Positions 3,668 through 52,765 of a stretch of DNA of 64,000 nucleotides are shown here, piece by piece. Numbering within the stretch: position 1 is the first letter of the stretch; each line of letters starts with the position of its first letter. The notes beneath the pieces were generated by a model. The model did no database searches. It had not been told where the DNA came from and was given only the letters and a program-made list of their open reading frames with translations. The position numbers were made by a program, and so were the translations under genes. Origin of the DNA: Octopus vulgaris (taxonomy: Eukaryota); the NCBI GenBank assembly GCA_951406725.2, contig OX597824.1, positions 29,946,001 to 30,010,000 on the forward strand. The letters run 5' to 3'.

Positions 3668-3922
3668 ACCTATTTCTTTATTACCCACAAAGGGCTAAAC
3701 ACAGAGGGGACAAACAAGGACAGACATAGGTATTAAATCGATTACATCGACCCCAGTGCGTAACTGCTACTTAATTTATCGACCCCGAAAGGATGAAAGG
3801 CAAAGTCGACCTCGGCGGAATTTGAACTCACAACGTAACGGCAGACGAAATACCTCTAAGCATTTCGCCCGGCGTGCTAACGTTTCTGCCAGCTCACCGC
3901 CTTCTTCTGCCAGCTCGCCGCC
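3668..3922 (-). mobile_element. tRNA-like SINE, family B
   Basis: Minus strand GGCGGCGAGCTGGCAGAA...GAGTTCAAATTCCGCC, central GCCTTTCATCCTTTCGGGGTCGATAAATTAAGTA block, tail ending AATAAAGAAATA; short duplication of the head. Confidence 0.9.
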
Positions 3923-4084
3923 TTGTTGGAACAATATAACCGTGGACATATTGGTCATGGATGGGACGCGTTGATCATAGGTTTGTTTGATCAAATCTAG
4001 TCGTGGAGATAAGAAATCAACAGCAACATCAACAAAAACTATAAATTGATTCAATGATGGCAAGAGTTGGTGTTTGTTTGTTTG

Positions 4085-4375
4085 TTCCTTCTCTAGCCAT
4101 GCCTGGCTCATAAGGGCCGGTTTCCCGGTTTCCTTGGCGCATAGGTCCCCCACCTGGAGGGGACGCCGGCCCGTCGCAGGTGAGCTGCAAGATGCAGGAG
4201 GAGAGAGTGAGAGAAAGTTGTGGCGAAAGAGTCAGCAGAAGCTCGCCATTACCTTCTGCCGGAGCCGCGTGGAGCTTAGGTATTTCGCTCATAAACACAC
4301 ACATCGCCCGGGCTGAGATTTGAACCTGCGATCCCTCGACCGCGAATCCGCTGCTCTAACCACTAGGTCATGTGC
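4085..4375 (-). mobile_element. tRNA-derived SINE, family C
   Basis: Head ending ...CCTAGTGGTTAGAGCAGCGGATTCGCGGTCG; homologous to 35219-35520. Confidence 0.85.
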
Positions 4376-4553
4376 TGCAGTGCTGTTTCTTCATCTTGTT
4401 TCCTCAACTTTCGCGATTTACCTGTTGTAAACAACGAAAGACCTGGGTTAGAGAGACGTCATGTCACTGATGAGGTCGCGAATGACTAACAAATTTAATT
4501 GACTAATTGATTGACCGAATGTTTTAAACAATCAATTAGCTAATTGATTAAAT

Positions 4554-10853: not shown

Positions 10854-11395
10854 AATATATGTATGTGTATATGCATGTATGTGATTGTATGTGTGTGTGT
10901 GTGTGTAACAACATGTGTGCGTCTTTGTGTCTGCGTTTGTCCCCCATCCCCCTTCACAACTGGTGTTGGTGTGTTTACATCCTCGTAAATTAACGGTTCG
11001 GCAAACGGGACCGATAGAATAAGTACCAGGCTTTAAAAGAAGTCAATTACTGGGACTGATTCGTTCGACTAAAATTCTTGAAAGTGGTGCCCCAGCATGG
11101 CCGCAGTCTAATGAAGATCCGTAATAAACGAAAATCCGTAATAAACGAAGATAGCTGTACTATATATTGTGATAGAATAAACTTTCCGAAATTTACAATA
11201 ATATGAACGTGTAAATAAATTCTATACTAGTATAAGACAGGGTCGTAAGAAGATTCCATTGTTTATACACACCATGTTGCAGAAATTGTTGAACTACAGA
11301 AACAGTCGAAAGATTTTGTTAGACAGAGGCCATTGGAGAATGAAGTGTGAGAGAATACGAACCACTGGCCTTCCTTTTTGTTGTGTGATGTCTAA

Positions 11396-11988
11396 CCTAT
11401 TTCTTTACTACCCACAAGGGGCTAAACACAGAGGGAACAAACAAGGACAGACAAAGGGATTAAGTCGATTACCAGTGCATAACTGGTACTTATTTAATCG
11501 ACCCCGAAAGTTTCAAAGGCAAAGTCGACCTCGGCGGAATTTGAACTCAGAACGTAGCGGCAGACGAAATACCTATTTCTTTACTGCCCACAAGGGGCTA
11601 AGCACAGAGAGGACAAGCAAGGACGGACAACGGATTAAGTCGATTATATCGACCCCAGTGCGTAACTGGTACTTAATTTATCGACCCCGAAAGGATTAAA
11701 GGCAAAGTCGACCTCGGCGGAATTTGAACTCAGAACGTTTCGGCAGACAAAAATACCTATTTCTTTACTGCCCACAAGGGGCTAAACACAGAGAGGACAA
11801 ACAAGGACGGACAATGGATTAAGTCGATTATATCGACTCCAGTGCGTAACTGGTACTTAATTTATCCACCCCGAAAGGATGAAAGGCAAAGTCGACCTCG
11901 GCGGAATTTGAACTCAGAACGTAACGGCAGACGAAATACGGCTACGCATTTCGCCCGGCGTGCTAACGTTTCTGCCAGCTCGCCGCCT
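11396..11988 (-). mobile_element. Family B SINE with three tandem bodies
   Basis: One full head (ending 11988) followed by two head-truncated ~180-bp repeats. Confidence 0.9.
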
Positions 11989-36990: not shown

Positions 36991-37269
36991 TATATGAAGG
37001 AGGGATTATAAATATCCGACTAAGATATTAAATAATTGTGTGTATGTGATCTTTGTACGAATATTAAGTTGGAAAAGAGAAATGGTTGCTTACAATTGCC
37101 TCTAGTATCTCTGATATGTTTTGTTATTGTTGTTGCTGTTGTTGTCGTTTAAACCCTGGTCAGCCCTGGTTGAGTAGTCCTATAATATCAGGCATTCAAC
37201 TATCTCGTCTTATACGTGCAACCCAGCATCACATTATCCAGCGTTTCTTTTTCACAAAACAGCGATGCG

Positions 37270-38325
37270 TGATTTGAAAGAGATTTTGGCTCCTATTTTT
37301 AGCAGATGAAACAATTATGTAGGGTCTACCTTGTTGTCTTTATTGCGCATTTTTGAAGATTTGACTCCTATTTTTAGAAGGTTGAGCAATTATGTAAAAA
37401 CTACCTGGTTGTATTTATTGTGTGATTTGTGGGAGATTTAGCTCTTATTTTCAGCAGATAGAGCAATTATGTAGAGGCTACCTCGTTGGCTTTATTGTGT
37501 GACTAGCAGTATAGCCCGGCGTTGCTCGGGTTTGTTTTTTAAAACGGCGGACTTTGATGTCGCGTTAACAAAGTTAAAACGGTAGACTATTCATTGATCA
37601 TAGTCTAAGTGAATATCTAAATGTTGTATCAGAGGATACCTATCATGGATGGGGAAACCGAATATCCTCCAAAATGCCTCATTACTATTGATGTAGCGAC
37701 CAACTAAGTACTGTTTTACTTCATCTCTACTTTCATCTTTTTTTAGTCCAAACGAAGCGGCATCGGAACCCTTGTTAATGTATTTACATATGCATTTTAT
37801 GCATTTCACGGAACTATAAAATTCTGGTACCTGTAAGAAGAAGTTTAAGTGGCTGTGGTTGATTCCTAGGGAGTTTTTAAGTGAACATTTTTCTGGTTGA
37901 AATACACCGAAAAATGGCGACACAGCAGTCAAAAAATCGTAAAAAAATAAGGATTTTCATACAAAAGAAGCACCTTTTTTATGTAAATGATTTTTGGTCT
38001 TAATATGGTTCGATTTGAATTTTTCATTCTACGGAATGAAGAGCAAGCTTTCTTCTATCATACTCTCAATTTTGGTCAACTTGCGCCGCAGGGTCTCAGA
38101 GGAGATAGTGTTAGTTGAAGGGTACCAAACCTGCCACACACACACACACAGACAACTTCAGCTTTATGTATATAGATTTGAGAAAAATTTGGCTTCTATT
38201 TTTAGCAGATAAAGCAATTATGCAGAGGTGACCTCGTTGGCTTAAATGTATGATTTGAGAGTGATTTGGCACCTATTTTCAGCAGATTTAACAAGTATAT
38301 AGAGGCTCCCTCGTTGACTTTATTT
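37270..38325 (+). repeat. ~77-bp minisatellite of five diverged units, split by a Helitron
   Basis: Unit resembles GATTTGGCTCCTATTTTTAGCAGATAGAGCAATTATGTAGAGGCTACCTCGTTGGCTTTATTGTGT; three units left, two right. Confidence 0.8.
37503..38176 (-). mobile_element. Non-autonomous Helitron with Rep fragment
   Basis: 5'-TC at 38176; subterminal hairpin CCCGAGCAACGCCGGG; CTAG-3' at 37503; A|T target; peptide SVKCIKCICKYINKGSD...RYINSNEAFWRIFGFPIH at about 37600-37815. Confidence 0.9.
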
Positions 38326-39779: not shown

Positions 39780-40100
39780 GAGAAGAGTGAGAGTGTCAGA
39801 CGGTGCTTCGAGAATTGTAGTTACCTAGGAGAAGATCTGGAAGAGAGATGGGGTCGGATAGATATGTTAAATGCAAGACGAGAGTTAATCAAAGAACTAT
39901 TGGCAGCTACAGAAATAATGAGAATAGAGACAAATGAACTAAGAAAAGGGAAGAAGAGGGACTAGGTCACAGACAAAAGTAGTGAGAGCAGATAATCCAA
40001 GGTAAGTGTAGGCACTAGCTGTTACAGTTGAATTATACTATCGCCTCCTATATAGGAAATTGCAAACTATACTTGCAGCAAGGTGGCTATTCACATCAGT
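39780..40100 (+). pseudogene. Very old RTE-like LINE relic
   Basis: CSYLGE and KELL patches resemble the FCYLGD and FRELL motifs. Confidence 0.25.
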
Positions 40101-40167
40101 GAATATATTGTTCATTGTTTTCTATATCGGAAACGACAAGTTTCGTCAAATCATTTGGCTGCGAGTA

Positions 40168-40207
40168 CATCACTGACAAGGCCTAAAAAGGTCGAAATGT
40201 ATCTGTC
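40168..40207 (+). ncRNA. Degenerate hammerhead motif
   Basis: CTGACAA-GGCCT-AAAA-AGGTC-GAAA-TG-TA; stem I weak. Confidence 0.4.
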
Positions 40208-40779
40208 GTTCTCGTTAGCCGGTGCTTGGATGAATGTGTAGTGTTCTTTTTTTTCTTACATAACACATATCTTACCTGTCAACGGATTAAGTGTTCGTTT
40301 CTCTTTTTGTCTTCTGCAATTTTATTTCTGGATCTTCTATATATATGAAGAATTTTCCTCATCTGGCTGTTTTGCTCTCTACAAAACGGAAAGTTGCATT
40401 ATGGAACAGTCATTTTAACGAGATTTTTTTTTTTATTTATCACCCGACATACATACATATATACATACATGCATACGCATACATGCACTTACACAATGTG
40501 TCGTTAAGAAATCCTATCATTACAAAATATTTTTTTAAATAATAATAAAACGGAATGCACAAACAGAATATTCAAATCTCAGCTTTTTACACGAACACGA
40601 ATAAAGAAAAACAACAACAACAACATGAAAACATGAAACAATATTCAAAGTTGATTCATGACCTTTGACAACATTTAATGACAAGTTGTCTATTCTGCGA
40701 GCTTCAGCAAAACGAGCGATTGACCTTTAGTGATTCCAGCGTATAGAGAGGGAATACGCTGAAGAAAGAATGTAACTGA

Positions 40780-42009: not shown

Positions 42010-42420
42010 CTCTCTCTCTCTCTCTCTCTCTGTCTGTCTCTCTATCTCTCTCTCTATCTATCTATTAATAAATTTCAAGGTAGTAAAAAAAATTTAGAAA
42101 AATTCTTTGCTACCATTCGTCTAGCGAGAAGAAACAACTAGTCAATTGACTATATATTATTCATATGAAAATATAGAAATACAGTGTACATTTAAACACA
42201 TAAGAGATGGCCATAACAGGACATCTGACTCGCTAGAAAGAGTAGTTAAACTACAAACCACTATTAGGGGTAATTTCGAAAGGGAATGAAAAATAAAAAC
42301 ATTTACCCTCTATTTCCTGTAACAAGCATGGTTTCAAGCAATCTTTAGTAAATAAAATAATTTACAATTGGCGAAGCTATCATCAGCAGGAAATGTACAC
42401 TGTATTTTTATATCTATCTA

Positions 42421-42467
<47 letters not shown>

Positions 42468-42612
42468 CTATTTAAATATGGATGTTCTATCGAAACAAAC
42501 AATACTACGTAGATAGCATAACAGAAATTCTCATATTGGCTTTTGGTGCACATTCACTCTTGTTTATATTACTAGCGGGAAAATGAATCCCCGTCATCTT
42601 CAGCGCCTAGAA

Positions 42613-42658
42613 CACCAGATCAGGTGATTTCGACTTCCTTTGGTTTCTTCAATGATGG
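42613..42658 (-). ncRNA. Type I hammerhead motif, unit 1
   Basis: CATCA-TTGAAGA-AACCAAAGGAAGTC-GAAA-TCA-CC-TGA-TC-TGGTG. Confidence 0.6.
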
Positions 42659-42957
42659 ACGTTCAACCGCTAGAGACCGCAGCAACTCGACCTACAGCAA
42701 TATACAGAAAAACAGTGCTAGAACAGGCGCTGGTGTCGCGATTAGCTAGTGAGCTTGGCATAAATATATATTCGTGATAGTGGCAGTATTAACACCGAAG
42801 GATAATAGTTATCCCTATTTAAACGTGCGTGTTCTATTAGAACTTTATTGCGGTAGATACCATGAGAGAAAATTTTATATTGGGTTTTCATACAAAATGC
42901 ACTCTAGTTAATATTGCTAAAAGAGAGATTAAATTTCCATCATCTCCAGTGTTTAGG

Positions 42958-43004
42958 CCACCAGATCAAGTGATTTCGACCTCCCTTGGGCTCTTCAATA
43001 ATGG
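42958..43004 (-). ncRNA. Type I hammerhead motif, unit 2
   Basis: CCATTA-TTGAAGA-GCCC-AAGGGA-GGTC-GAAA-TCA-CT-TGA-TC-TGGTGG; AUC site. Confidence 0.65.
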
Positions 43005-43201
43005 ACACTCGACCGCTAGAGATAGTAGCGGCTCCTCTCCCCATCAGCGATATATGGAAAAAACAGTGCCAGAACAGGCGGTGATGTCGCGATTAGCCAG
43101 TAAGCATGTAAAAACATATATATCGGCGACAGGGGCTGTACATATATGTGTGTGAGCGCGCGCGTATGTATACATACATATATATGTGCGTGCGTGCGCG
43201 C

Positions 43202-52599: not shown

Positions 52600-52765
52600 A
52601 TACTAACATCCAACCACATTCGTCATCTCTGATATAAGAGACTGTAAATAAGATATATTCACTGATGTTGCAGATAGCCACTTGGTTGAATAAAAATTCG
52701 CTATATGCAATTGAGGCAATATTAAATTAAAATAGACATATTTGTATCACACTTGATGTATATAC

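Follow-up and report, generated by a model that had tools for sequence, protein, structure and literature searches.

A decayed two-unit insertion of an old hammerhead repeat in Octopus vulgaris, likely a non-LTR retrozyme copied by Penelope machinery

The DNA analyzed here (the window) is a 64,000-nucleotide stretch (G000:C11:29946001-30010000; GC content 41%) of the 2.8-Gb, microsatellite-rich genome of Octopus vulgaris. It contains a decayed insertion, 1.95 units long, of a hammerhead repeat that is old, dispersed and ORF-less, has a 354-nt unit and is likely a non-LTR retrozyme copied by the reverse transcriptase (RT) and endonuclease of a Penelope element (PLE). The locus in the window is itself an unremarkable dead copy. 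What the preliminary description of this DNA chiefly lacked is the PLE insertion signature and the family's age.

The insertion consists of two head-to-tail units, B followed by A, on the minus strand (43140 to ~42460). The units are 72.8% identical over 331 columns (E 2e-45), which bears out the preliminary description of two diverged head-to-tail units of ~347 nt beside a (TA)n tract. Unit B (42816-43140), upstream in the sense direction, covers family positions ~28-354 and forms the 5′-truncated end of the insertion, being short by ~27 nt; it is 83% identical to the family majority, with a non-CpG divergence of 14.5%. Unit A (42469-42815) is a full downstream unit (family positions 1 to ~354; 81% identity to the majority, 14.4% non-CpG divergence). 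Small deletions have made the window units shorter than the family unit, and the length of ~347 nt given previously holds for these copies but not for the family. The 3′ end of the insertion (42458-42468, minus strand) lies at about family position 11, within the cluster of ends that lack a tail, and includes a few bases of a third turn; it blends into the TA repeat and its exact base is ambiguous. The (TA)n microsatellite at this junction (42409-42465) reflects either an AT-rich target or an expansion after insertion. The insertion is without an inverted piece, and its two units have only 5 non-CpG variants in common in 287 sites, which is not clearly above background. A contig of run X2 (run kind not on record) covers 42637-43029, across the junction of the units, with 9 differences in 393 letters, making an assembly artefact unlikely to the extent that X2, which may not be independent of the assembly, can be relied on. 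Tandem Repeats Finder listed no period of ~346 at the dimer. Other tandem repeats in the window are two nearby clusters of 77-nt units (37269-37502 and 38175-38320) and a three-copy 184-nt tandem (11395-11939).

Each unit retains a recognizable but decayed type I hammerhead on the minus strand. Hammerhead B (42958-43004) has all six stem I pairs, the core UUGAAGA (U3·G8), three of four stem II pairs, a GAAA and a short, near-palindromic helix III; hammerhead A (42612-42658) has five of six stem I pairs, the same core and two of four stem II pairs. A pairable stem I in both units had been claimed, and these counts agree with it. TTGAAGA lies at 42998-42992 (B) and 42652-42646 (A), GAAATCAC at 42977 and 42631, and the last base of the AUC cleavage triplet is 42964 in B and 42618 in A; the motif and triplet coordinates thus confirm hammerheads 346 nt apart. 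TTGAAGA is not the canonical core, because position 3 is a U opposite G8, a combination that is expected to impair the hammerhead core. Rfam reported no hammerhead at the dimer, neither at gathering score nor up to E 10; the miRNA matches it listed in the window were located on simple repeats and were rejected. The short hammerhead stretches folded no better than shuffles, and both hammerheads failed the in silico integrity checks. A long helix that extends stem I in the family can still be traced, with approximate ends, at 42910-43055 in unit B (arms ~43055-43008 and ~42956-42910; 81% of the family's pairs still formable) and at 42560-42706 in unit A (73%), both on the minus strand, and the predicted fold of the window monomer has a z of −0.1. 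Judged from the U3·G8 core, the broken stem II and the predicted loss of the family fold, the window copies probably no longer cleave.

The preliminary description proposed a genome-wide search for the unit, and the unit proved not to be unique. The family is dispersed on most large contigs, and three DNA searches of the genome gave 1,376, 2,692 and 2,854 first-look candidates, 40 of which were scored in each search. A 25-nt family core pattern had 109 exact matches in the genome vs. none for the reversed control, placing the hammerhead motif far beyond chance. The longest open frame in the family unit is 62 codons. A strict two-hammerhead pattern was found at two places genome-wide, and no long array was found.

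Many of the sampled loci were chosen as best matches, and the sample favours long, well-kept copies. These copies differ from the family majority by a median of 10% at non-CpG sites, and all 21 CpG sites of the family unit are heavily decayed. Unrelated copies have a median identity of 76%, and the two window units are as far apart (73%). A search for a young copy gave a best non-self match of 86% to a near-majority copy and a best pair of 87% between sampled loci. With no copy found more than 87% like another, the family looks long extinct. If the octopus calibration in the available portion of PMC13282606 applies (distance 0.09, ~25 My; 0.2, ~56 My), its age would be a few tens of millions of years. 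The tandem units at L143:1368-2147 are 88.8% alike, well above the family norm, and represent a later local duplication or a younger insertion. L158:1318-1951 (minus strand) belongs to a more diverged subfamily (66-68%) and is a partial tandem with one canonical CUGACGA core. A sister hammerhead repeat is represented in the window by a remnant at 40084-40214 (plus strand), homologous to the unit (profile E 2e-6) with a CUGACAA core, and elsewhere by relatives at L146 and L147 (73-76%) and L157 (intact CUGACGA core); the L147 copy is followed, ~1.2 kb downstream, by the remnant of a PLE endonuclease. A weak profile match to the unit's tail region at 52660-52754 of the window (minus strand; E ~1e-3) is possibly a fragment of the family or its sister.

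The preliminary description named hammerhead positions that are no more conserved across copies than their flanks as an outcome that would count against its reading. That outcome is what was found: in loci found by DNA search, conservation was 0.901 for hammerhead columns and 0.896 for the rest (p 0.58). An apparent excess of hammerhead conservation (p 1e-4) was an artefact of loci picked by pattern and was gone in the DNA-found loci. The equal conservation of hammerhead and remaining columns shows that the inserted copies decay neutrally; inactivity of the source RNA is not thereby implied.

As to class, the family has low-GC tandem units within the ~150-450 nt size range of non-LTR retrozymes, one type I hammerhead per unit, no coding capacity, a dispersed distribution and a self-paired majority sequence. 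The RT plus GIY-YIG frame between pseudo-LTRs that defines an autonomous PLE is missing, although the tail, the partial tandems and the inverted 5′ copies of such elements are present. On these sequence features, the family is a fossil belonging to the known class of non-LTR retrozymes and not an autonomous PLE, with putative ribozyme activity and putative circles. The retrozyme reading put forward previously therefore stands for the family, which is ORF-less, dispersed, head-to-tail, low in GC and of retrozyme size, but not for the integrity of the window hammerheads.

In the family majority the hammerhead is of type I; its stem I is 6 bp and its stem II 4 bp long, and its helix III is palindromic. 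Hammerheads with a short palindromic helix III are described as acting in dimers (PMC4209133, PMC7229834, available sections). The predicted circular fold of the majority has −145 kcal/mol vs. −93 for shuffles (z −9.8; CpGs restored, 40 shuffles); z was −9.2 without CpG restoring and −6.8 for the antisense strand (40 shuffles each). In this fold, a helix of ~50 pairs extends stem I of the hammerhead and joins the two ends of the cleavage-to-cleavage monomer. On the hammerhead strand the helix includes eight G·U pairs, and our own reading of it found no A·C mismatch (8/8, p 0.008), a bias that points to selection on RNA of that strand. No convincing covariation in the helix was detected among copies (lowest p 0.04 among 52 pairs).

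The structure of the insertions links the family to PLEs. Duplicate loci were removed before counting (L027 and L038, and later 22 of 105), leaving 83 non-redundant loci of the 105 examined. Fifty exceed one unit, 19 carry at least two hammerheads in one run, and the longest head-to-tail run is 2.87 units. An inverted piece is joined 5′-to-5′ in 18 of the 83. The 3′ ends (n = 97) fall at positions 5-33 (50 ends) or 48-64 (33 ends), with none between and 14 elsewhere, so that 83 lie in two clusters ~40 nt apart. The 5′ ends are spread, two of 97 lying near the cleavage site, and neither 5′ nor 3′ ends pile up at that site. Loci chosen by core pattern only, and hence unbiased for ends, gave a similar picture (24 of 31 ends in the two clusters; inversions in 7 of 28 loci), and a further 29 loci picked by their 3′ segment had 11 inversions (one place counted twice) and two ends in the gap. 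The available part of PMC8557442 describes a 30-40 bp tail, partial tandems and inverted 5′ copies as PLE signatures, and what is accessible of PMC11167929 explains the tail as the distance between two sites at which the RT starts once AT-rich DNA has been nicked. Target duplications were not clear (mean shared word 5.3 vs. 4.9 for shuffled; 7 of 300 shuffles as high). A flank common downstream of several copies was discarded as a very common SINE-like repeat with 23 matches in the window.

These features suggest how the family may have been copied. The source RNA would have folded into the ~50-pair helix tipped by the hammerhead, and hammerheads would have cut multimers into monomers, probably as dimers given that helix III is short and palindromic. 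The long helix could then have held the monomer ends together for a host ligase. A PLE protein would have nicked AT-rich DNA, and its RT would have started either ~160 or ~200 nt past the cleavage site, the two start sites being ~40 nt apart. It would then have continued across the hammerhead site for as many as ~3 turns before halting at a random point, on occasion adding an inverted piece. Because reverse transcription passed through the hammerhead site, the template would have been either a re-ligated circle, to which we give slightly better than an even chance, or an uncut multimer, to which we give slightly less. Arguments for a circle are the helix that joins the monomer ends, the lack of long arrays and the cores, which were likely paired; arguments for uncut RNA are the share of U3·G8 cores and the results with a PLE in vitro. 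Units of one locus had rare variants in common at a rate of 0.0040 per site, 2.5 times the 0.0016 per site for units from different loci (0 of 5,000 resamples; the 40 pairs are not independent), which fits circle and multimer templates alike.

The alternative that survives best keeps the same element and PLE helper but makes the hammerhead mostly a passenger, the template being uncut read-through of tandem copies or of a lost source array, with no circle; we consider this possible, if on balance doubtful. It draws on the cleavage site without a pile-up of ends and on the composition of the core. Among the 57 hammerheads taken from loci found by DNA search, 47 have U at position 3 and 8 have C, and a hand tally of 100 listed pattern matches gave 59 U3-A8, 19 U3·G8, 12 C3·A8 and 10 C3-G8. 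It also agrees with the use of uncut RNA by a PLE in vitro, where the hammerhead was not needed (PMC11167929, accessible part), and with the cleavage in vitro of only one of nine Xenopus retrozyme dimers (10.64898/2026.07.22.740005, in the portion available). Against it stands the long helix, which links exactly the two ends of the cleavage-to-cleavage monomer. Nor does this alternative sit well with the absence of a long array, since linear copying would only be able to shorten its template, or with U3-A8 being a known active natural variant (PMC3088659; also PMC4209133, available sections).

The core variants bear on both readings. Positions 7-8 are a CpG in the family unit and are now CA in 33 copies, TG in 11 and CG in 8, making this the most CA-skewed of the 21 CpG sites; such a skew is expected if a paired U3-A8 source existed and thus counts against a passenger hammerhead. 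The CA:TG ratio at this site differs between U3 and C3 copies (p 0.010), and the direct association of positions 3 and 8 is weak (p 0.066). That the family core was simply U3-A8 was considered, and is weakened by the decay of the 7-8 CpG to CA. Since A8 can arise from CpG decay alone, some of the source RNAs may have cleaved poorly. Together, the copies suggest, without proving, that three core variants existed in the source. Of the 89 family hammerheads sampled, a set in which pattern picks had raised the share of good cores, 19 passed every in silico check. Natural copies whose cores are intact include L045 (U3-A8) and L065 and L161 (both C3-G8).

A second alternative, which we regard as improbable, is that the units derive, with 5′ truncation, from the tail end (pseudo-LTR) of an autonomous PLE and that its coding part went unsampled. 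A tail, inversions and a type I hammerhead all occur in autonomous PLEs (PMC4209133, PMC8557442, in the parts available), but where an octopus copy exceeds one unit, it extends into the preceding unit rather than into a reading frame. Seven frames from PLE loci detected no RT or endonuclease remnant in sets of 72, 32 and 29 family loci, which overlap partly, or in the window, the matches of one non-RT frame being set aside; these tblastn matches of the L101 frame were to a common repeat, with 14 matches in the window, and were filtered out. Flanks common to several copies were inverted unit pieces or other common repeats.

The host genome does have PLE genes with RT and GIY-YIG domains, many with a 781-codon open frame. 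PLE loci were taken from 148 GIY-YIG matches (PF01541; 150 scored of 6,136 candidates), a sample in which old families are underrepresented. The family profile had no match at E<1 in 40 PLE loci, and no parent PLE or pseudo-LTR homology was found there; the tail region did match one PLE family over 24 nt (E 0.68, antisense to that family's reading frame), but this was rejected as chance. The lack of a match among these loci means that we infer a helper rather than identify one, and the helper may be extinct or unsampled. Many copies of one young-looking PLE family (L093-L096 and L098, e.g., G000:C16:20835000-20842000) have RT plus GIY-YIG frames of 781 codons, and ~1 kb behind the gene this family has a minimal hammerhead whose core, UUGAUAA, is of the U3-A8 type. 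A copy of a second PLE family (L097) is flanked by a perfect 766-nt inverted repeat (1321-2086 and 3718-4483); the 100% identity of its arms indicates a recent insertion, and no hammerhead in this copy passed the filters.

It is very improbable that the family is a DNA-level repeat (a foldback element or minisatellite) with an incidental hammerhead and a dimer made by local duplication, as the long internal inverted repeat, the well-folding antisense strand and the closely similar L143 units might suggest, because the polarity of the ends, with 3′ ends fixed and 5′ ends random, largely refutes it; moreover, the inverted repeat lies inside the unit and not at termini, the G·U bias falls on one strand, a complete hammerhead sits at the helix tip and the window units are no closer to each other than unrelated copies are.

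A stronger form of the retrozyme reading, which we hold tentatively and at somewhat less than an even chance, is that this extinct family, with its two-site tail and 5′ inversions but no pseudo-LTR homology, records a protein-free hammerhead circular RNA copied repeatedly around its length by Penelope machinery, with source cores that passed from C3-G8 through U3·G8 to a re-paired U3-A8. If true, this shift would represent selection for cleavage in a replicating RNA. Contigs similar to the family numbered 110-284 per run in runs guessed to be RNA, and such contigs cannot show ends, level or circles. Joints in contigs that go back by one unit (four runs on the window and four on the better-kept L005) were set aside, as genomic tandems explain them equally well.

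The literature search found no description of a cephalopod retrozyme; the supplement of PMC7229834, which lay outside its scope, might list a cephalopod family. The word "ribozyme" does not occur in the available text or supplement of the Octopus vulgaris repeat annotation paper (PMC13282606). The family may already be catalogued, unnamed, in repeat libraries, which were outside the search. The added value is modest and consists of insertion-signature evidence for PLE mobilization and a lineage for which no description was found. The helper of animal retrozymes has so far been argued from co-occurrence and homology, and the octopus insertions themselves carry the PLE signature. The tail and inversion signature is a simple test for active retrozyme families (mussel, coral, axolotl), and the family suggests a defined substrate for the existing in vitro PLE system.

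Among known systems, the octopus family is most readily compared with the animal non-LTR retrozymes of PMC7229834, as described in its available sections (Mytilus galloprovincialis, ~350-390 bp; axolotl and newt, 330-350 bp). Both have a unit of a few hundred nucleotides with one type I hammerhead and less than 50% GC, no reading frame, a head-to-tail arrangement, a self-paired predicted monomer, a short palindromic helix III and PLEs in the same genome. Compared by description, the octopus family differs in being extinct-looking and decayed, in occurring mostly as 0.5-3-unit pieces with no long array found, and in a core that is mostly U3. The resemblance to endonuclease-positive PLEs, as far as the accessible parts of PMC8557442, PMC11167929 and PMC4209133 describe them, lies in the optional 30-40-nt tail, the partial tandems, the inverted 5′ piece, the AT-rich junctions and the hammerhead. 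U3-A8 cores occur in the Cercyon elements of Schistosoma (PMC4209133, same sections) and likewise in the 781-codon PLE family of this genome. Unlike those PLEs, the octopus unit is without RT or GIY-YIG domains, measures 354 nt and not 3-4 kb, and has canonical 6-bp and 4-bp stems in place of the minimal form. Animal retrozymes are proposed to be non-autonomous PLE derivatives in the available portion of 10.64898/2026.07.22.740005, and the octopus family has the same proposed helper and the same pattern of monomers, dimers and multimers. The vertebrate link to PLEs was drawn there from co-occurrence and pseudo-LTR homology, whereas that of the octopus family, for which no pseudo-LTR homology was found, comes from its insertion signatures; the two-site tail and the 5′ inversions are not reported in that portion.
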